From: Dehalococcoidia bacterium
GTDB lineage: Bacteria > Chloroflexota > Dehalococcoidia > Lucifugimonadales > JAGWBF01
Length of the DNA: 54,749 bases
Assembly: GCA_021296025.1 (NCBI GenBank)
Contig: JAGWBF010000003.1
Location: forward strand, 1-54,749
Reading direction: 5' to 3'
The notes under the pieces were generated by a model. It searched no databases. It saw nothing but the letters and a program-made list of their open reading frames with translations, and was not told the DNA's origin. Shown piece by piece: positions 3,600-51,529 of the stretch. Positions within the stretch are counted from its first letter, which is position 1; every line of letters starts with the position of its first letter. The position numbers and the translations under genes were made by a program.

Positions 3600-4517
3600 C
3601 TAGTACCCCTCGTAGCGAACCATAGCCTCGGCCGCCGGCTCCCCATCGAAAAGATCGGGATGGAGCGCCCGCGCTAGAATGTCCACGCCGTCAACCAACC
3701 GAGGACCTGAGCGGGTGAAGTAGGCGTTTGAGTTTCCCACAAAGACCTGTCCGCATTGCGTGGCCGACAAGGAACTCCAGCCTGGCAGCTCCGTCAGCAG
3801 GGACATCTCGTCCATCCCCCTGTCAACGTCGAAACCACAAGGCGCGACGAGCAGAACATCGGGGTCCTGGGCCACTACCTCATCCCAGTCGGTCCTGCGG
3901 GAGGGACGCCCAGCCCTTCCCAGGCAATCGACTCCGCCGGCTGCTTCTATCATCTCCGGCACCCAGTGACCGGCGTATATCAGCGGCTGAAGCCACTCCA
4001 GGCAGGCCACCCGTTTCAATTTGGCCTGCCCGGTCTTACTCCTTACCTCATCGATCCGACTTTTCATCCCGTCCACCAGTTCTACTGCCGCATCTTCACA
4101 CCCGGCCGCAGCGCCGACGCGCATGACATCATCGAATACATCCTGGAGACATGTAGGGTCCAGGGTGATGATGGTTGGATCTCTCTTCAGATATCTACAG
4201 GCCTCGGCAACCTGCCGGGCGGTGACCGCTCACTCTTCGCAAAGGGCTTGGGTCAGTATGATGTCCGGCTCCGCTTCCCTGAGCACATCCTTGTCTATCT
4301 CATATATGCCCTTGCCCTGGACCAAGCGTTCCCGGATCCACCGGTCTATCTCCCCGCTGCCGGCCGTCCCGTTGTCCAGGGTGCTATAGACCACCTTGGG
4401 GACATCCAGGGCCGCCGCCGGATAGTCGCATTCGTGGCTCACTCCATAGAGACTATCTCCCAGACCGAGGGCGTACACCATCTCGGTGGCCCCGGGAACG
4501 AAGGAACAGATTCGCAT
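3600..4517 (-). CDS. Cytoplasmic periplasmic-binding-protein-fold (BtuF/cobalamin-siderophore type) protein with an in-frame TGA at 4230-4232; candidate selenoprotein (C-E-E-U) or pseudogene
   Basis: ORFs 4230..4532 and 3600..4124 are in the same frame and separated only by one TGA. My read-through translation is ...DIILTQALCEE-[TGA]-AVTARQVAEACRYLKRDPTIITLDPTCLQDVFDDVMRVGAAAG... From memory, family members carry L-C-x-V-C-A-V at this point, so the TGA sits on the second Cys. There is no signal peptide. Start taken at ATG 4517 (MRICSFVPGATEM). Confidence 0.6.
4201..4220 (-). promoter_or_regulatory. SECIS-like hairpin 9 nt downstream of the in-frame UGA
   Basis: Minus-strand RNA GCCCGGCA-GGU-UGCCGAGGC forms an 8-bp stem with one bulged A. 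The apical loop contains GGU, or AGGUU if the closing A-U pair opens. Confidence 0.4.
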
Positions 4518-4679
4518 GAGCACATCCCCCAAGCACAGTTGTCGTGTCCAGGAGCATTATGCCAAGAAGGTCAACTAACGTACAGAACAGACCTTCGAGC
4601 TGCGTTGTGCCAGGAATACTCCCATGATATATTGACGCCACCGACGCCGAGACACGAGCCAGGCACAAAAGGGAACGAC

Positions 4680-5891
4680 ATGGTGCAAGCTCAGGATATA
4701 AGGAACATGAAGCTGGTCTCCCACCATGATCTTGGCGGGTACGGCAACGTCGGCGAGGGAATCGCCATCCACCAGTACCCCGGCGGGCAGCGCCTCCTCT
4801 TCCTGGCCCACGAAAGCTCCCCCAAGGATGTTACGGTGGTGGACGTCACCGACGTCGCCAACCCCAGGGTGGTGAACCAGACGGAGTTGCCCCACCGGGA
4901 GATGCGCTCCAACTCCCTGGCGGCCGTGGGCGACATCCTGTACGTCGCCTACCAGGTGGCCAGGCCGGGAATGAAGCCCGCAGGCATGGGCATTTACGAC
5001 ATCAGCAAACCTGGCGAGCTCCGGCAGATCAGCTTCTTCGACACTTCCGGGCCCGGCTCCAGGGGTGTGCATTGCTTGTGGTGCGTGGACGGGCGCTACG
5101 CCTACTTGAGCACCGGCAGCAGCGACCTCAATCCCCGAAATCCCAAGGACGACCAGTTCTACATGTGCGTGGATGTGAGCGACCCCGCCCAGCCTCAGGA
5201 GGTCGGGCGATGGTGGCTGCCGGGAACCATGGACAGCGATGAGGAAGACCCGCCGGAGAGGCATCCCCACTTCGACACCGGCTTTCGCCTTCACAACGCC
5301 AACGTTTACCCACAGAGACCCGACCGGGCCTACCTGGGATACATAGACGCCGGATTCATCACCCTGGACATATCGGACATGGCCAAGCCAAAAGTGGTCA
5401 ACCATGTGGACTACCACCCACCCCTCATCGGCTTCACCCACACGGTGGTCCCCCTGTTCCAAAGGGAGCTGCTGGTGGTCAGCGAGGAAGCTATTACCCA
5501 GGATGGGTGTGCCGACTGGCCCAAGCTCGTGTGGATCGTTGATGTCAGCGTCGAGTCGAACCCTGTGATGCTCAGCACCTTGCCGATGCACAAGGAAACC
5601 TACGAGAACCTGCCGGGCCGCTACGGCGCCCACAACATTCACGAGAACCAGCCCGTGCCGACATCCCACATCGACGAGAACATCGTTTATGGCACCTACT
5701 TCAACGGAGGAATCCGTGTGCACGACATCTCCGACCCCTTCAGACCCGAAGAGGTGGCCTACTTTGTGCCGCCCGTGCCTGAGGGTGCCCCAGCCAACGG
5801 GGTCAACGATGTGTACGTGGACGAAAATCAGCTGATCTATACGGTGGACCGCATCGCGGGCGGGCTGTACATCTTGGAGCCCGACTTCTAG
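4680..5891 (+). CDS. LVIVD-repeat beta-propeller protein
   Basis: Only the C-terminal 403 aa of the 711-aa track ORF look real. The upstream part is antisense to the binding-protein gene. Repeated hydrophobic-D-(I/V)-(S/T)-D/xxP units: VTVVDVTDVANP, MGIYDISKPG, FITLDISDMAKP, VWIVDVSVESNP, IRVHDISDPFRP. Confidence 0.7.
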   Translation: MVQAQDIRNMKLVSHHDLGGYGNVGEGIAIHQYPGGQRLLFLAHESSPKDVTVVDVTDVANPRVVNQTELPHREMRSNSLAAVGDILYVAYQVARPGMKPAGMGIYDISKPGELRQISFFDTSGPGSRGVHCLWCVDGRYAYLSTGSSDLNPRNPKDDQFYMCVDVSDPAQPQEVGRWWLPGTMDSDEEDPPERHPHFDTGFRLHNANVYPQRPDRAYLGYIDAGFITLDISDMAKPKVVNHVDYHPPLIGFTHTVVPLFQRELLVVSEEAITQDGCADWPKLVWIVDVSVESNPVMLSTLPMHKETYENLPGRYGAHNIHENQPVPTSHIDENIVYGTYFNGGIRVHDISDPFRPEEVAYFVPPVPEGAPANGVNDVYVDENQLIYTVDRIAGGLYILEPDF

Positions 5892-16068: not shown

Positions 16069-16307
16069 TACGCCACATCTCCAGCGTGGGATAGATTCAC
16101 CCAGTTATCACCTTGGTCGCAACCGGCCTTTTCCAGTATATCAGAGCCAGGGTTGCCCTTTCATCCCGCCCCACGGGCGGGAGAGTTCCGAAGAGAATGA
16201 TGGACCGGATGAAATATAGCTTTTCCTGTCGTCATGGGGGAGAATATGACAATCGGCCGTACTTCATTCTTAGCCGCCCTCATGATGATAAAGCGAGAGG
16301 TGCATCC

Positions 16308-18350
16308 ATGCCCAACCATCTCATCAACGAGACCAGTCCATACCTGCTCCAGCACGCCAACAACCCGGTGGACTGGTACCCCTGGGGTGAGGAAGCCCTC
16401 TCCAAGGCCCAGGGGGAGGACAAGCCCATCCTCCTGAGCATCGGGTATTCAGCCTGCCACTGGTGCCACGTCATGGAGCGGGAATCCTTCGAAGACCCCG
16501 GCATCGCGCGGATAATGAACGAGAACTACGTGTGCATCAAGGTTGACCGGGAAGAGAGGCCGGACCTCGACAGCATATACATGAACGCTGTCCAGGCCCT
16601 TACCGGCGGCGGTGGCTGGCCTATGACCGTGTTTCTCACCCCCGATGCCCGTCCCTTCTATGGAGGCAACTACTTCCCACCCGAGGACCGGGGAGGCATG
16701 GTCGGGTTTCCCAAACTGTTGGCGCGGGTCGCCGAAGCCTTCAGGAGCAGGCGGGGAGAGGTTGTGCAGACCACCAACGAGCTGCTGAACCACATTCAGC
16801 CCTCTCCTCCAGCCCGGAGCGCCGACCCCTTGAGCTCCGAGGTCCTGCACGATGCCATGGCCACCCTGGTGCAAGGGTTCGATTTCGACAACGGAGGCTT
16901 TGGCTCCGCTCCCAAGTTTCCACAGCCAATGATCTACGAGTTCCTGCTCAACTATCACCACATCAACAAGGACCCCTTCGCTCTGCAGATGGTGGAGATG
17001 TCGGCGGAGAGGATGGGGCGCGGCGGGATGTACGACCAGATCGGCGGGGGCTTCCACAGGTACTCGACCGATGCCCACTGGCTGGTGCCCCACTTCGAGA
17101 AGATGCTCTACGACAACGCCCTGCTCAGCAGGCTTTACCTGCACCTCTTCCAGGCAACGGGCAACGGCTGGTACCAGCGCATCGCCGAGGAGACCCTGGA
17201 CTATGTGCTGCGGGAGATGACTGACCCGGCTGGAGGCTTCTACTCCACCCAGGACGCCGACAGCGAGGGGGTGGAGGGCAAGTTCTTCGTCTGGTCAATA
17301 GACGAGATTGCAGGCTTGCTGGGGCCGGTCGACGGGCCCATCGTGGCGGGTTACCTGGGGGCCTCCGAGGCCGGTAACTTCGAGGGGCGCAACATCTTTC
17401 ACCTTCCCGAGGCGACTGGACCGTACGCCGAGAAACACGGGCTGTCCATAGAAGAGCTAATAGATAAGGTGCAGCAGGGAAAGGCCTCTCTCCTGGAGGA
17501 GCGGGAGACCCGCATCCATCCCGCCCGGGACGAGAAAGTGCTCACTGCATGGAACGGACTGATGATCCGCAGCTTCGCCGAAGCCGCCTCAATTCTGGGG
17601 CGAGACGACTACAGGCAGGCAGCTCTGAACAGCGCGACCTTCATTCTGGACAATCTCCGGAAGGACGGCCGCCTCCTCCGCACCTACAAGGATGGCCAGG
17701 CGAAGCTGAACGGCTATCTTGAGGACTACGCCTGCATGGCCCATGGTCTGTTGGCCCTGTACGAGGCAACCTTCGACGCCCGATGGTTCGATGAAGCCAA
17801 CGCCCTTGGGAGGGACATGGTAGACCTGTTCTGGGATGAGGCCCAGGGCATCTTCTATGACACCAGCCGGGACCATGAAGCCCTGGTGGTGCGCCCCCGG
17901 GACTTCTTCGACAATGCGACGCCATGCGGAGGCTCGGTAGCTACCGGGGTCCTTCTTCAGCTGGGGGTATTGACCGGGGATGGTGAATACTCCCGGCGAG
18001 CATCGGCCGCCATGCACGCAGTCCAGCAGCACTTGGCGCGAATCGCTCAAGGGATGGGACGCTGGCTGGCCAACGTGTGCTTCTACACCTCGGCCCCCAA
18101 GGAGATCGCCATCATCGGCGACCCATCGTCGGCGGACACTCAGGCCCTGATGAGGGAGGTCTACCAGCGCTACCTTCCTAACAAGGTTGTGGCCGGCGCC
18201 GGTGCCCCCGTGGCCGACGACCACGCTACGCCCCTGCTCCAGGAGCGGGGGATGATCGACGGCAAGCCCACGGCTTACGTCTGCGAGAACTACTCCTGCC
18301 AGCTTCCTGTAACAACCCCCGAGGAGCTGGCCTCCCAGCTGGAGCAGTAG
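16308..18350 (+). CDS. Thioredoxin-domain protein (DUF255 / YyaL / SPATA20-like, N-terminal Trx fold plus six-hairpin glycosidase-like domain)
   Basis: [24 protein letters not shown]...[18 protein letters not shown] is the DUF255 signature. I chose the ATG at 16308. The upstream part of the track ORF lies in the divergent intergenic region. Confidence 0.85.
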
Positions 18351-45637: not shown

Positions 45638-46375
45638 TCACCGGCCCCTGGTGTCTCCCCACAGGTAGATGTGCAGACGGGGGCTGAACCGCAGGTTTTC
45701 GTTCACGCAAAGCTGGCTCAGCCAGTCGCTCCGCTCCTGCAGCACCGAAGAGGTGCGCCCCTCGGGGGAAAGGAGCACCCGCTCCCTGGAAAGAGACATT
45801 TCATCCATAAGCCTGCGGACCTCTTCCACGTCCGATTCCCTCGTAACCACGAACTTGAAATAGGCCTGCGAGATAGCTGCGAAGGACTTTAGCGCCTCCG
45901 GGACATAGCGTTCCTCCGACGTATTCCCCGACGTGTCAAGCTTGGGAGAGACGTTCCACTGATCGATAAGCGCACCCATTTCAGGCGTGGGCGCGATGGT
46001 GCCGTTGGTCTCCACCTCGAAGGTGAATCCCCGGCCCTTAAGCGATCGGACCAGCCCAGCCATCTGGTCCTGCTGCAACATCGGCTCTCCCCCGGTGATG
46101 ACAAGATGGGAACAGCCGTATTGCAGCACCTCGTTTTCGACGTGTTCTGGCGAGAGTTCCACAACCTCTTTTTGGAAATCGTAGTTCTTCCAGTCCCAGG
46201 TGTACTTGGTGTCGCACCAGGTGCAGGCCAGGTTGCACTGGGCCAGCCTCAGAAACACCGCTGGTGTCCCCGCCATCGTACCTTCGCCCTGAAGGGTGTG
46301 AAATATCTCCGGCCTGCCTTCGGGTCGACAGCTTACTTTCAACAACGTTTCCGAAGGGTGGGAATCCGTATTCAC
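45638..46375 (-). CDS. queE: 7-carboxy-7-deazaguanine synthase (radical SAM)
   Basis: TLQGEG...CNLACTWCDTKYTW cluster motif. Last gene of the que operon. Confidence 0.88.
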   Translation of the reverse strand: MNTDSHPSETLLKVSCRPEGRPEIFHTLQGEGTMAGTPAVFLRLAQCNLACTWCDTKYTWDWKNYDFQKEVVELSPEHVENEVLQYGCSHLVITGGEPMLQQDQMAGLVRSLKGRGFTFEVETNGTIAPTPEMGALIDQWNVSPKLDTSGNTSEERYVPEALKSFAAISQAYFKFVVTRESDVEEVRRLMDEMSLSRERVLLSPEGRTSSVLQERSDWLSQLCVNENLRFSPRLHIYLWGDTRGR

Positions 46376-47121
46376 GACGTTCCGCCCTTCAACCTTACCA
46401 GCAGGGGGTCGGGGTGCCCCGCCTCTTGAAAGCCCTTTGCCCGCAGAATACAGCTGTCGCAGGTACCGCAGGGTTCAGGGCCTCCCTGGTAGCAGCTCCA
46501 GGTGTTGGTGAGGGGAGCATCTAGATCCTTGGCCCATCGGACTATCTCCCCCTTGGACAGGTGGATGATGGGGGTCTCAATATTCATCGGGATGTTGTAC
46601 TCGCTCCACAGCTTGCTCCCGTACTTTAGGACCTCTTTCATCTTCTCGAAAAACTCGGGGCGGCAATCGGGATACCCGCTGTAGTCGATAGCATTGGGGG
46701 CCATGAACAGCGTGGCCTGAATCTCATCCGCCTTCAACTTCTCCTGCTCAATGGCCCACAGAGCCTGGCTCTCCAGGTAGGCGGCGCTGACGGTGATGAA
46801 GAAGGTGTTGCGTAGGGGAACGTAGGAGCTGGGAATGGACTGGCCCATCTGGCTTGCGTCTCTTTCCTCGGGCAGGGCGATGACGTCGGGGCTGGTCAGG
46901 GCCGAATACCAGGCGACCTTCCCAAAGGACGACACATCCACCAGCTCATGGCGGATGCCCAGGGATGCGCTGACCTGGCGGGCGCTGTCCAGCTCCGTGC
47001 TGTGGATCTGGCCGTAGTAGAAGGTGAGGGCCGTCAGCCGGTCGGTCCTGTGCTTGGCATATGCCGAAACGGTGGTGGAGTCCAGCCCGCCGGAGAGCAG
47101 GGTGACGCCGATGCTGACCAT
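46372..47121 (-). CDS. queC: 7-cyano-7-deazaguanine (preQ0) synthase
   Basis: LLSGGLDSTT PP-loop and the C-terminal zinc site CYQGGPEPCGTCDSCILR. Confidence 0.9.
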   Translation of the reverse strand: MVSIGVTLLSGGLDSTTVSAYAKHRTDRLTALTFYYGQIHSTELDSARQVSASLGIRHELVDVSSFGKVAWYSALTSPDVIALPEERDASQMGQSIPSSYVPLRNTFFITVSAAYLESQALWAIEQEKLKADEIQATLFMAPNAIDYSGYPDCRPEFFEKMKEVLKYGSKLWSEYNIPMNIETPIIHLSKGEIVRWAKDLDAPLTNTWSCYQGGPEPCGTCDSCILRAKGFQEAGHPDPLLVRLKGGTS

Positions 47122-47549
47122 CAGGAGGCTGATCTATATTCAGCGTACTGGGTAGAGGACTCCCACATACGGACAGCTGCCGGTTCGATGCCGCAAAGCT
47201 CCTCGGTCTTGCGGTATATCTCCCGGGCCATCACCTCCGCCGACGGGTTCACCCCATCGAAAAGGTAGATGAACTGCTCCTTGACCCCCCGTAGAGCTTC
47301 CAAAAGCTCGCCGTCCTTGCTGTTCAACAGGAATGCGTGGTCCCAGTTGGCATCGATCCACGAGGACACCTTCTGCTTCAGCTCGCTGAAATCCACCACA
47401 AATCCCACTGAATTCAGGGCATGGGAAGCCATGAAAATTTCGACCTTGTAGTTGTGGCCGTGGGGATGGATACACTTGCCATTGTGGCCCAGGAGCCGGT
47501 GACCGGCGGAGAACTCCATCTCCACCCGGACCTGGTAGTCGTCCTTCAT
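47121..47549 (-). CDS. queD: 6-carboxy-5,6,7,8-tetrahydropterin synthase
   Basis: 142 aa with FSAGHRLLGHNGKCIHPHGHNYKVE. Confidence 0.9.
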   Translation of the reverse strand: MKDDYQVRVEMEFSAGHRLLGHNGKCIHPHGHNYKVEIFMASHALNSVGFVVDFSELKQKVSSWIDANWDHAFLLNSKDGELLEALRGVKEQFIYLFDGVNPSAEVMAREIYRKTEELCGIEPAAVRMWESSTQYAEYRSAS

Positions 47550-47571
47550 CGCCGTCGCCTGATGAGACCGC

Positions 47572-48015
47572 TCAAGAGGGCAAGCCCTCTCCTGGGTACG
47601 TGGCGGTAACGACTGTGTGCAACCCTCCCCGGACCTTGTAGTCCAGCACTACCTCCATGCAGCGGGGCTTGCACGCACCCACCAAGTCGTCCAGGATACG
47701 ATTGGCGGCGCTTTCCTGCACGATCCCCACATCCCGATAGGACAACAGGTAGTACTTTAGGGACTTTAGCTCGATGCACAGCTCGTGAGGCTCGTAGGTA
47801 ATGCTCAGCGTGCCGTAGTCGGGAAGGCCCGTCCAGGGGCACACGGCGGTGAATTCGTCGGTGTCTATGCGAACTGTGGACTCTCCACAAGAAGGCTCGT
47901 AGTCAAAGGACATAATGATGGCGCTGTCGATGGACGCCTCCGGTCCATCCTGTATGAGCCTGTCCAGGTTCTCGTAGCGTTCCTTCAGCGATTCTATAGA
48001 TGCCATGTCCGCCAC
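47572..48015 (-). CDS. queF: NADPH-dependent 7-cyano-7-deazaguanine reductase (unimodular type)
   Basis: 147 aa with the catalytic Cys context FTAVCPWTGLPDYG and the IELKSLKYYL motif. GTG at 48015 or ATG at 48006. Confidence 0.88.
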   Translation of the reverse strand: MADMASIESLKERYENLDRLIQDGPEASIDSAIIMSFDYEPSCGESTVRIDTDEFTAVCPWTGLPDYGTLSITYEPHELCIELKSLKYYLLSYRDVGIVQESAANRILDDLVGACKPRCMEVVLDYKVRGGLHTVVTATYPGEGLPS

Positions 48016-48149: not shown

Positions 48150-48178
48150 TTGTCATTCCTAGGGCCCTGGGGTATCCT
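48150..48178 (+). promoter_or_regulatory. Weak candidate promoter for the divergent FTR-like operon
   Basis: TTGTCA (48150-48155), a 17-nt spacer, then TATCCT (48173-48178). If used, the first gene must start downstream of 48178, for example at TTG 48232. Confidence 0.25.
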
Positions 48179-48621
48179 TGTTGTATCTGGCAGATACGGG
48201 AGGGCCCCTGGCCCAAACGGGGGAAAAGGCGTTGAAAGACCAAGCCCCAAACGGCGCAGCGGCCGAGACCGAACTGCTCCAATCTCCGGCAGAGCTGGAG
48301 GAGATACAGGAGCTTTTGAAAGAGGCGGTAGCTTCGGAGCCCTCCCTTCGCCTGTTGCCCAAATTCGGCATGGCGCGGGCCGGCAGTCCCGACTTCCACA
48401 GGACCTACTTTGCTATCCACTGCACCTGTGGGACGGCGGGTCTTGTTTGTATAGAAACAGCCAAGTCCAAGACCCTGTCCCAAGTTGAGGATGCGCTGCC
48501 TTCCCTGAAGCAGCACCTGGTGGGCAGGGCCAAGCAGTTTGCAAGCATGCCATGCTCAATGCACACCAGCATGCGCTCTGCGGGCATCCAGGCTTCAATG
48601 CCAGGAAGTGGGGGAGGCTGA
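48178..48621 (+). CDS. Uncharacterised protein, first gene of the FTR-like operon (start uncertain)
   Basis: 147-aa ORF with a coding-like helical acidic segment (ELLQSPAELEEIQELLKEAV), then a Cys/His cluster (HCTCGTAGLVC ... MPC). I recognise no family. Its TGA at 48619-48621 is 1 nt from the ATG of the next gene, and the RBS of that gene lies inside this ORF. Confidence 0.45.
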   Translation: MLYLADTGGPLAQTGEKALKDQAPNGAAAETELLQSPAELEEIQELLKEAVASEPSLRLLPKFGMARAGSPDFHRTYFAIHCTCGTAGLVCIETAKSKTLSQVEDALPSLKQHLVGRAKQFASMPCSMHTSMRSAGIQASMPGSGGG

Positions 48622-48622
48622 T

Positions 48623-49039
48623 ATGGCGAAGGAACTGGACCAGGACAAGGCGATGGAAGGCACCATCCGCTTCTCGGAAAAGTACGTCGAGAAGAGCGGG
48701 TACAAGTTCTTTCCCGACCAGGAGGTGGTGCGCCTAGTACAGGAGGGCCTGGCCCGCAACCAAGTGGAGTACGGCTACCGCTACTGCCCTTGAATGCCCC
48801 TCAGCGGCGATCCCGTCGAGGACCGCAAAAAGATTTGCCCCTGCGACCGGCACCATGAGGATATAGAGAGGGACGGGTTCTGTATCTGAATGTTCTTTGT
48901 CAGCGAAGAGTTTCTTCGCCAACAGGAACAGGGTAGTGAGATCGAACAGACCATTGGCGATGCAGTCCAGCCCGGCGAGGGCCTGTTTGACCAACCATAT
49001 AAATCGAAGGCAGACCAGAAGGGGAGTCAGAGTACTTAG
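48623..49039 (+). CDS. Ferredoxin:thioredoxin reductase catalytic-subunit (FTR-beta) homolog with two in-frame TGA codons (48791-48793, 48887-48889); candidate double-selenocysteine protein (U57, U89)
   Basis: GGGGGAGG RBS 6 nt before ATG 48623. Read-through translation: MAKELDQDKAMEGTIRFSEKYVEKSGYKFFPDQEVVRLVQEGLARNQVEYGYRYCP-U-MPLSGDPVEDRKKICPCDRHHEDIERDGFCI-U-MFFVSEEFLRQQ...ST*. It aligns with cyanobacterial FtrC (...YAKRTDTYFCSD..VVIEGLARHKEELGSPLCPCRHY...WNCPCVPMRERKECHCMLFL). The CPC/CPC/CHC pattern becomes CPU/CPC/CIU. All three pieces are in one frame. Confidence 0.7.
48799..48821 (+). promoter_or_regulatory. SECIS-like hairpin after the first UGA of the FTR-like gene
   Basis: CCUC-A-GCGG-[CGAUC]-CCGU-C-GAGG: two 4-bp helices around an A/C mismatch, beginning 5 nt after the UGA. 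This is the weakest of the four hairpins. Confidence 0.3.
48903..48919 (+). promoter_or_regulatory. SECIS-like hairpin after the second UGA of the FTR-like gene
   Basis: GCGAAG-AGUUU-CUUCGC: a perfect 6-bp stem (7 bp with the A-U closing pair, leaving a GUU loop), beginning 13 nt after the UGA. Confidence 0.45.
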
Positions 49040-49054
49040 AGGAGCTGAGAAGCT

Positions 49055-49291
49055 GTGAGCATAACCGTTTACACATCCGTTGGTTGAGGCCCCTGCCACA
49101 TGGTGAAAGTGTACCTTTCACAAAAGGGGTTGGAGTTTACCGAACGGAACGTTTCACTGGACGAAAACGCAAGGGATGACCTGCTATCCCTGGGATATCG
49201 CAGCACACCCGTGACTGTGATAGACGACCAGAAGGTCGTCGGGTACAGCCCTCCCAAGCTGGAAGAAGCCCTGCAAGCGGCCGGGATCTAG
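49055..49291 (+). CDS. Glutaredoxin/NrdH-like small redoxin with an in-frame TGA at 49085-49087; candidate selenoprotein with a U-G-P-C active site
   Basis: GAGGAG RBS 10 nt before GTG 49055. Translation: MSITVYTSVG-U-GPCHMVKVYLSQKGLEFTERNVSLDENARDDLLSLGYRSTPVTVIDDQKVVGYSPPKLEEALQAAGI. The track ORF (49100..49291) starts after the active site and lacks beta-1 and the CxxC loop. Reading through the TGA restores a complete Grx fold with the Sec at the first CxxC position. Confidence 0.7.
49103..49121 (+). promoter_or_regulatory. SECIS-like hairpin after the UGA of the redoxin gene
   Basis: GUGAAAG-[UGUAC]-CUUUCAC: a perfect 7-bp stem with GU in the loop, beginning 15 nt after the UGA. Confidence 0.45.
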
Positions 49292-49328
49292 ACGCAGGTA
49301 ACCTTGTCCCATAGGGCCAATGCAAGTT

Positions 49329-50494: not shown

Positions 50495-51529
50495 TTGGAC
50501 AACATACTGGTCACCGGTGGTGCAGGATTCCTTGGGATGACCCTTGTGAAGAGCCTGGTGGGCTTCGGGGTGCGCCCGCGGGTGCTCGATATCAACCGTC
50601 CCGGGGACCCTGAGCTGGAGTCCAAAATGGAGTTCATCCGGGGGGACATCCGCAATCCCGACACCGTCCACCGGGTTGTTCGGGGGATGGATATAGTGTT
50701 TCATCTGGCCGCCGCCGTGCTGCCCACCAGAGGGAAGCGGGCGTACACATCCACCAACACCGAGGGCACGAGGAACCTGCTCCAAGCCTCCCTCGACCAT
50801 AACGTGAGACAGGTTGTCCACGTATCCACCAGCGCCATTTACGGAATACCCCAGGAGCTGCCGGTCACCGAGGAGTCCGAGCTTCGTCCCATGGGTTACT
50901 ATGGGAACGCCAAGTACCAGGGCGAGCTGCTGGTAAAGAGGTACCGCAACAGGGGCCTCAGGGTGTGTGTCCTGAGGCCACGGACCATCATCGGCACCGA
51001 ACGCCTGGGGATATTCCACATCCTCTTCGACTGGATCAAAGAAGGCAAAAAGGTCCCGATAATCGGCAAAGGGGACAACCTGTTCCAGTTTGTGAGCGCC
51101 CGCGACTGTGTGACAGCCTGCTACAAGGCAGTAGATGCCCGCAGCAATGACGACTTCAACCTAGGCGCGGAGGAGTTTTCCACGGTAAAGGCGGACCTCG
51201 AGGGCCTAACCGCCTATGCCGGCACAGGGTCCCGCGTTGCCCCAATACCTGCGCCACTGGTATAGGCCCCTCTCCAGTTTCTGGATACCCTCAGGCTTTC
51301 ACCACTCATGGACTGGCAGTACAAGGTGGCCGACAAGCCCTTCTACTTTGATATCACCAAGGCCAAGACGGACCTAGGCTGGCAGCCCAAGGACAGCAAC
51401 CTCAGCATGTTCATCGACTCCTACGACTGGTACACCAACTACTACGTCGATTCTGCCGAAGCCTATGGGTCTACTCACCGCAAGGCCGTGCGTCAGCGAT
51501 TTCTCCGTCTCCTCAAGGCTGTATTCTAA
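50495..51529 (+). pseudogene. NAD-dependent epimerase/dehydratase interrupted by a single in-frame TAG (51263-51265)
   Basis: ORF 50495..51265 (TTG start, AAGGAG RBS, ILVTGGAGFLG) and ORF 51308..51529 are in the same frame. Read-through gives ...VAPIPAPLV-*-APLQFLDTLRLSPLMDWQYKVADKPFYFDITKAKTDLGWQP..., which is the normal C-terminal region of this family. Confidence 0.6.

Follow-up and report, generated by a model that had tools for sequence, protein, structure and literature searches.

We analysed a window of 54,749 nucleotides (the whole stretch covered by positions 1 to 54,749 of contig JAGWBF010000003.1, assembly GCA_021296025.1, from a Dehalococcoidia bacterium) and focused on a short gene at 49055-49291 whose reading frame is crossed by a TGA codon. 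This gene, here called grx, very probably encodes a small glutaredoxin (Grx)-like redoxin that contains selenocysteine (Sec, U). It lies directly downstream of ftrB, a gene for a protein resembling the catalytic subunit of ferredoxin:thioredoxin reductase (FTR), itself with two Sec codons. The gene and its elements are as follows.

49055..49291, plus strand: coding sequence of the predicted Grx-like selenoprotein, 78 aa, an architecture repeated in 80 of 80 related genomes
49039..49044, plus strand: Shine-Dalgarno-like GAGGAG, 10 nt 5' of the GTG start
49085..49087, plus strand: in-frame UGA, predicted to be read as Sec, at the first position of a U-G-P-C active site; TGA in 81 of 81 sequences
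49103..49121, plus strand: hairpin resembling a selenocysteine insertion sequence (SECIS) inside the coding sequence, with a 7-bp stem GUGAAAG/CUUUCAC and a 5-nt loop UGUAC

The frame starts with GTG (49055-49057) and runs through nine sense codons (SITVYTSVG), TGA (49085-49087) and GPCH to ATG 49100, from which it continues as MVKVYLSQKG and so on to a TAG stop at 49289-49291. Upstream it is closed by an in-frame TAG at 49037-49039, which is the stop codon of ftrB, and by TGA 49046-49048. The product would read (M)SITVYTSVG-U-GPCHMVKVYLSQKG...AAGI, with Sec as residue 11 of 78. The list of open reading frames (ORFs) in the window begins this gene at ATG 49100 and reports a 63-residue "glutaredoxin". 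With U written as C for profile scoring, restoring the N-terminus raised the score against Pfam Glutaredoxin (PF00462, threshold 22.9 bits) from 31.6 bits for the 63 aa to 53.1 bits, and the profile coverage grew from positions 14-58 to positions 1-58 of 60. As the match now extends to profile position 1, strand beta-1 and the CxxC loop are regained. A sequence-only reading of this DNA had located the GTG, the TGA, the GPCH, the ATG, the upstream stops, the GAGGAG and the hairpin where we find them, and had proposed that the UGA places Sec at the attacking residue of a motif of the CGPC type. All of its positions agree with the sequence, the profile search on the read-through product gives the fold that it expected, and its assignment of Sec is upheld by an invariant TGA, selection upstream of that codon, Cys-containing homologues, a constrained hairpin and a neighbour that belongs to a curated double-Sec family.

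Conservation across Dehalococcoidia/SAR202 carries much of this conclusion. Of 278 relatives retrieved by a protein search, almost all have 63-67 residues, start with MVKVYLS and come from Dehalococcoidia/SAR202. Such uniform lengths fit either a family that truly begins at this Met or one cut short throughout at a Sec codon. At the DNA level, the sequence upstream of each match was translated in 80 Dehalococcoidia/SAR202 species-representative genomes, which together with the window give 81 sequences. The same codon was TGA, followed by GPC[H/R/Q], in all 80 genomes and in the window, although the C-terminal part of the protein is only 62-95% identical among these genomes. Ahead of the TGA lies a conserved strand, I-x-V-[YF]-[TS]-S-x-G, whose V, S and G are at or near 100% and whose I and T reach 86%. 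The nine codons before the TGA vary synonymously, with 3-4 codons in use for each (GTC, GTT or GTA for Val; TCC, TCG or TCT for Ser; all four codons for Thr). About ten upstream codons are thus conserved as amino acids and yet synonymously variable, indicating selection at the protein level on a translated segment. An in-frame start (ATG, GTG or TTG) stands 10-14 codons ahead of the TGA in 78 of the 81 sequences, and a Shine-Dalgarno-like motif precedes the inferred start in 75 of the 81 loci. The orthologues accordingly do not begin at the internal ATG, a possibility that the sequence-only reading had named as one that would overturn it. No Cys form occurs inside the orthologous group of 80 species, in which Sec is fixed.

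The same reading had also allowed for an error at the level of the reads. The TGA might have arisen through a mistake in sequencing or assembly, or might have inactivated the gene and left a pseudogene, and the window does contain one apparent nonsense difference elsewhere, TAG 51263 against AAG in a near-identical contig. Against this, the TGA of grx is identical in 81 assemblies from varied technologies and studies, with frame and protein conservation intact on both sides of it. Since these assemblies are independent, an error or a pseudogene is ruled out for practical purposes, and we assign it a negligible probability.

Another explanation takes the public annotation as correct: ATG 49100 would be the start of a truncated protein of 63 residues, and the 45 nt upstream would be a leader or would encode a 10-residue peptide. 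All gene callers on related contigs choose the 63-aa ORF, the Met at 49100 is invariant, and even the short form scores above the Pfam threshold. Such a product, on the other hand, would be missing strand beta-1 and the attacking residue, with the GPC left outside the ORF, and the conserved but synonymously variable codons upstream, with a start and a Shine-Dalgarno-like motif nearly everywhere, speak against a leader. The Cys homologues argue in the same direction. When the 63-aa part served as query, exhaustive searching with HMMER retrieved full-length homologues with 35-48% identity in which Cys takes the place of U. Among them are P0152 (SCGPCQMVK), P0185 (CKPC), P0197 (CAPC) and nine more, and CPWC, CHVC and CPDC also occur. 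These homologues are co-linear with the Grx-like protein through the upstream region, both active-site positions are invariant in the alignment, and Cys falls on the Sec position. The invariant Met encoded by ATG 49100 corresponds to a conserved M/L after CxxC-x in the Cys homologues, so its invariance is no start signal. Taken together, a start at ATG 49100 is extremely unlikely.

Solved structures place the read-through product in the Grx fold. The closest one is glutaredoxin 7c10 (E 1.8e-14), in which the first Cys of CxxC lies opposite U. NrdH-redoxin structures (4fiw, 1r7h) are collinear from residue 1, again with the first CxxC Cys opposite U. The label "NrdH-like" given by the sequence-only reading therefore holds as far as this collinear Grx-like fold is concerned. 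It does not hold as a family assignment: the curated NrdH cut-offs are not reached (TIGR02194, 60.4 against 85.75 bits; NF007657, 42 against 131 bits), UGPC stands in place of the CVQC active site, and nrd genes do not adjoin. Neither nrdI, nrdE nor nrdF is among the neighbours, which are queCDEF, ftrB, a conserved gene named ORF147 here, and genes for an epimerase and an OTCase-like protein.

Other families were tried and rejected. YruB (TIGR02196) gave the best NCBIfam match but stayed below its cut-off (72.8 against 88.55 bits). The UXX-star families (NF041212, NF041211, NF041114 and NF047338) scored 17.8-43.1 bits against cut-offs of 66-100, and are also contradicted by the position of Sec, which is three residues from the C-terminus in those families and residue 11 of 78 here. 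Thioredoxin (PF00085) gave no match, Thioredoxin_2 and Thioredoxin_3 remained below threshold, and the G-U-G-P-C segment has no Trp; the likeness of the Grx-like protein to thioredoxin is confined to its xGPC active-site chemistry. By the cut-offs that we checked, the Grx-like protein falls outside all curated NCBIfam models. As a separate observation, two truncated-looking Grx-like proteins, P0128 and P0141, begin MFCAKVKEFLSQ... and, judged by their sequences, may belong to another Sec subfamily, with U-M-F-C as its active site and an ATG directly after the UGA.

The RNA downstream of the UGA is also under constraint. The hairpin at 49103-49121 starts 15 nt 3' of the UGA, spans the codons of VKVYLS and contains GU in its apical loop. 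Across 72 distinct sequences, 99.8% of the cells in the stem alignment were paired, and the loop was UGUAY. The stem codons hardly change: GTG in 80/80, AAA in 75/80, GTG in 79/79, CTT in 80/80 (a Leu codon, out of six) and TCA in 78/80. The five AAG variants give G-U pairs, and the remaining changes fall in loop positions or likewise give G-U pairs, with a single exception, one U-C mismatch in one sequence. The codon entropy at V6, V8, L10 and S11 was 0-0.19 bits, compared with 0.6-1.9 bits at 22 other conserved codons with fourfold or sixfold degeneracy (Mann-Whitney p=0.001, the lowest value attainable with 4 versus 22 codons). Within the segment, synonymous change is free at one site only, TAY, and this site belongs to the loop. 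Frozen synonymous sites in the stem suggest an RNA structure superimposed on the coding sequence, as expected for a bacterial SECIS. The scoring of this hairpin thus supports its earlier nomination as a SECIS: it is a candidate with a perfect 7-bp stem and suppressed synonymous change, for which binding by SelB is predicted.

How the UGA is read was weighed next to the other recoded sites. A scan of the window for CxxU/UxxC contexts left only four TGA sites with a convincing coding context. Three belong to the gene cassette around grx, namely that of grx and the two of ftrB. The fourth is 45 kb from the cassette:

3603-4556, minus strand: gene for a protein with a BtuF-like periplasmic-binding fold, the fourth Sec candidate, with its TGA at 4230-4232; Peripla_BP_2 matches through the UGA with 79.5 bits

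Its context is ...DIILTQALCEE-UGA-AVTARQV (CxxU), and a hairpin CGGCA-GGU-UGCCG follows about 12 nt past the UGA. The protein fits a known selenoprotein family, "cobalamin-binding protein BtuF, CxxU" (PMC13188914), and BSepDB lists Dehalococcoidia metagenome-assembled genomes with 46-49 selenoprotein genes (PMC13326102). A plus-strand ORF at 3756-5891 overlaps the BtuF-like gene and has probably been called too long on its 5' side. Elsewhere in the window, a 745-aa ORF at 16113-18350 (plus strand) has no assignment beyond a weak local match of 27 bits, over residues 85-149, to the model of the rhodanese/DsbD fusion-like selenoprotein TsoB.

The UGA could instead be read as Trp, Cys or Gly, through near-cognate suppression or a lineage-wide change of the code. 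Several database entries (P0131 and P0286-P0294) do translate it as W and so provide full-length products of the same genes, and no gene of the Sec machinery was seen in the window. These W entries, however, stem from gene callers that apply code 4 to short contigs. TGA is the commonest ordinary stop in the window and terminates 16 of 37 long ORFs, which shows that the code is not reassigned. The recoded sites coincide with redox-active Cys positions (CxxC of Grx, CPC and CxC of FTR) and with the CxxU of the BtuF-like protein; hairpins with G-U in the loop follow the UGAs of grx and of the BtuF-like gene and the second UGA of ftrB; and the FtrB neighbour satisfies a curated selenoprotein model. 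A reading as another amino acid is thus very unlikely. From the three other Sec codons of the window, all in known selenoprotein families, and from the Sec-rich Dehalococcoidia genomes in BSepDB, we infer indirectly that this genome possesses a Sec machinery. Sec remains the preferred reading of UGA 49085.

The gene upstream of grx supplies the second part of the argument. Its features are listed below.

48623..49039, plus strand: ftrB, for a [4Fe-4S] protein that resembles the FTR catalytic subunit and has 138 aa, two of them Sec (NF041072, FeThRed_B)
48791..48793, plus strand: first ftrB Sec codon (CP-U), an in-frame TGA
48887..48889, plus strand: second ftrB Sec codon (CI-U), an in-frame TGA
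48903..48919, plus strand: candidate SECIS hairpin GCGAAGA-GUU-UCUUCGC, 13 nt past the second ftrB UGA, from the fold of the window and the alifold consensus

The motifs of FtrB are CP-U ... CPC ... CI-U. With the NCBIfam model "FtrB family double-selenoprotein" (NF041072) the protein reaches 226 bits, where the cut-off is 160, and with Pfam FeThRed_B it reaches 91.7 bits. In its nearest structures, 4tpu (E 5.8e-15) and 7pwe, both U lie opposite the third residue of CPC and of CxC. From the established structure of FTR, we take these two positions to be the redox-active pair beside the [4Fe-4S] cluster. The hairpin after the second UGA is conserved across loci (alifold consensus of 74 distinct sequences) and is built like that of grx; no equally clear hairpin follows the first ftrB UGA. 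Public gene calls truncate FtrB to 56 aa. An FTR with two Sec at its redox-active positions was reported from Global Ocean Sampling (GOS) data by Zhang & Gladyshev 2008 (PMC2398784). Related to FtrB is also a variant, L085, at 397-870 of ENA ERZ27247687:k141_250315, with CPC ... CI-U and thus Sec at the second position only. In evolution it may stand between the Cys and the double-Sec forms; no Grx-like gene was found on its 2.9-kb contig.

The sequence-only reading had considered the direct pairing of grx with a Sec-containing FTR-like gene to be unusual and had suggested looking at synteny in related genomes. The pairing is real, with a spacing of 15 nt in the window, but it is no peculiarity of this genome: ftrB adjoins grx in all 80 Dehalococcoidia/SAR202 genomes. 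A motif search found ftrB directly upstream of grx in 79 of the 80 loci, and at the 80th, where the sequence is N-masked, the C-terminus of FtrB is still visible. A read-through fusion of FtrB with Grx was rejected because their relative frame differs among loci; in the window the two share a frame, with TAG and TGA between them. A third gene accompanies the pair:

48178..48621, plus strand: ORF147, a conserved gene without an assigned family, ending 1 nt before the ftrB ATG; start uncertain

According to an ENA call on a near-identical contig, ORF147 is 129 aa long, which would put its start near 48232. It lies on the same strand directly 5' of ftrB in 74 of the 80 loci and has a core of about 100 aa with invariant CxC and CxxH motifs. 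Neither Pfam nor NCBIfam holds a family for it, and its homologues have no Pfam domain. Its core is modelled with confidence by AlphaFold2, and no fold in the PDB matched (best E 0.13). ORF147 could be a metal-binding accessory subunit or a target of an FtrB/Grx relay. The outer flanks (queF/queD, the OTCase-like gene and the epimerase gene) are common to only 5-20 loci. Because the flanks vary while the three genes stay together, the conserved unit is ORF147 - ftrB(U,U) - grx(U).

On this basis we propose how the cassette may work. UGA 49085 would be recoded co-translationally by the bacterial Sec system, that is SelB and Sec-tRNA, guided by the hairpin at 49103-49121. Reduced ferredoxin, the presumed donor by analogy with FTR, would pass electrons singly to the [4Fe-4S] cluster of FtrB, where the redox-active pair, Sec-Sec in place of Cys-Cys, would be cleaved. 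The exposed Sec of CP-U would then attack the Se-S bond in the oxidised Grx-like protein and form a transient intermolecular Se-Se bond; the attacked Sec would correspond to the Cys through which thioredoxin is linked to FTR in their mixed disulfide. A second electron would resolve the Se-Se link and release the redoxin in its reduced selenol/thiol form, which would in turn reduce downstream targets. A ferredoxin-level reductant would suit low-potential Se-Se and Se-S couples. These steps follow the FTR mechanism of Dai et al. 2007, as it is cited in PMC2398784. By this analogy, we moderately favour the Grx-like protein as a dedicated substrate of the diselenide FtrB.

The alternative is that the Grx-like protein is a true Sec-redoxin which FtrB does not reduce. 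The two would merely be co-expressed, for example because both act on ORF147, or a conventional thioredoxin reductase would reduce the Grx-like protein. The biochemical link between FtrB and Grx is a prediction by analogy, and a third conserved gene with CxC/CxxH motifs is present in the cassette. The enzyme of structure 4tpu, the closest solved one, is described as a ferredoxin:disulfide reductase whose physiological substrate is uncertain, which also counts for separate partners. Cys-type FTR-like relatives adjoin other thioredoxin-fold proteins or none: P0298 adjoins a 205-aa Redoxin/AhpC-type protein, and in their loci no Grx was found near the Cys-type P0299 or the single-Sec variant P0295. 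The contigs of the Cys-Grx homologues are too short or show unrelated neighbours. The FtrB/Grx pairing is specific to the double-Sec clade. On the other side stand the adjacency in 80 of 80 loci over deep divergence, with close spacing here and variable flanks, and the fixation of Sec in both partners at precisely those residues that, by the established FTR mechanism (Dai et al. 2007, as cited in PMC2398784), form the intermolecular bond between FTR and thioredoxin. The potential of ferredoxin would also be suited to reducing low-potential Se-Se and Se-S bonds. Separate partners are thus unlikely, though less so than the alternatives above, and FtrB remains the favoured reductant of the Grx-like protein.

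The overall statement, a Sec-containing Grx-fold redoxin that takes part in a relay with FtrB through the conditional steps described, is in our judgement highly probable. Several observations weigh against it. Neither selA, selB, selD nor tRNA-Sec was found in the 54.7-kb window, its 20 largest ORFs included, and no tRNA-Sec was found in 60 neighbouring loci; the insertion of Sec is itself deduced from sequence. The stem of the grx hairpin is invariant, so no covariation is measurable in it. As a single sequence, 49085-49150 folds no better than its shuffles (z = -0.27), and there was no relevant Rfam match, to a SECIS-type family or otherwise, either at gathering thresholds over the whole window or at permissive E-values over 48600-49320. 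As for the relay, the path of electrons from FtrB to the Grx-like protein is proposed from synteny and from the FTR/thioredoxin analogy. Since the Cys-type and single-Sec FTR-like relatives that we examined have no adjoining Grx, the pairing cannot be generalised from Cys systems.

Comparison with known systems shows which parts are familiar. Among selenoprotein families, Sec-Grx (UxxC, PF00462) has been verified by experiment (PMC13188914), and the Sec-Grx of Clostridium/Alkaliphilus oremlandii reduces the selenoprotein MsrA, according to Kim et al. 2011 as cited there. The protein described here has in common with bacterial Sec-Grx a small Grx fold, Sec as the first residue of UxxC and the joint use of Sec in a redoxin and in its partner enzyme. 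It differs in its thioredoxin-type U-G-P-C site, in having as its Sec partner an upstream reductase, FtrB, rather than a downstream target, and in the fixation of Sec in 80 species without a close Cys orthologue. A dependence on glutathione appears unlikely.

NrdH-redoxins (TIGR02194; 4fiw, 1r7h and 1h75) are alike in their Grx-like fold of about 75-80 residues, collinear over 1-76 with E-values from 2e-13 to 6e-7, and by analogy the Grx-like protein may also resemble them in thioredoxin-like behaviour. WSGFRP is a motif of NrdH-redoxins; here its place is taken by VVGYSPPK, in addition to the differences in active site and gene neighbourhood given above.

The FTR/thioredoxin systems of cyanobacteria and chloroplasts (1dj7, 2puk, 2pvo) offer the FTR catalytic fold with CPC...CPC...CxC motifs and a small substrate of thioredoxin fold with (C/U)GPC, and the two-step one-electron mechanism through a mixed dichalcogenide is presumed, by analogy, to be common to both. 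In the cassette, by contrast, Sec occupies both redox-active positions of the reductase and the attacking position of the substrate. There is no FTR variable subunit (no FeThRed_A match), and an unrelated CxC/CxxH protein is found instead; the substrate has the size of a Grx rather than a 105-residue thioredoxin fold; and the hosts are non-photosynthetic Dehalococcoidia. NF041072 describes the reductase FtrB, not the Grx-like protein. The FTR-like ferredoxin:disulfide reductase of Methanosarcina acetivorans (4tpu), the closest structure to FtrB, aligns at CPC and CxC. It has a fused rubredoxin domain and Cys only, whereas FtrB has a tail of about 40 acidic and lysine-rich residues and two Sec.

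What is already known therefore comprises FtrB as a double selenoprotein, the Sec-Grx family and the precedent of a Sec redoxin that serves a Sec enzyme. The Grx-like subfamily, its invariant pairing with FtrB(U,U) and the third gene appear to be unrecorded in the papers and curated models consulted, although Haft & Tolstoy 2025 may cover them. The public gene calls that we saw truncate the Grx-like protein to 63-67 residues, and a dedicated model would correct many records; single clusters of the protein occur on more than 260 contigs, including contigs from Tara Oceans. With three Sec at bond-exchanging positions and no Cys orthologue in 80 species, the cassette is a natural system in which to ask why a low-potential, ferredoxin-driven dichalcogenide relay would use selenium in preference to sulfur. 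In ecological terms, it is one more sign of how SAR202 and other Dehalococcoidia depend on selenium. A more far-reaching idea, which we put forward tentatively and consider rather doubtful, is that the cassette forms a self-contained, obligately selenium-based and ferredoxin-driven relay peculiar to Dehalococcoidia/SAR202, running from [4Fe-4S] through a diselenide and an intermolecular diselenide to a selenenylsulfide. ORF147 would then serve as the specific target of the relay, or else as a new kind of metal centre or accessory subunit of an FTR, and Sec would have become fixed at the three positions through co-evolution of the partners for an Se-Se exchange that sulfur cannot match.

Two further observations concern the surroundings of the cassette. 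On its upstream side, divergent from it on the minus strand, a complete queE-queC-queD-queF cluster for preQ1 synthesis occupies 45638-48015. It is common to only 11-12 of the 80 loci and is thus probably unrelated to the cassette. On the downstream side lies an NAD-dependent epimerase/SDR gene (50495-51529, plus strand) with an in-frame TAG at 51263-51265. The same codon is AAG (Lys) in ERZ18545484:ptg007101l, where the epimerase is one protein of 344 aa, and the window's TAG at 51263 reflects either a nonsense variant or an error of sequencing.

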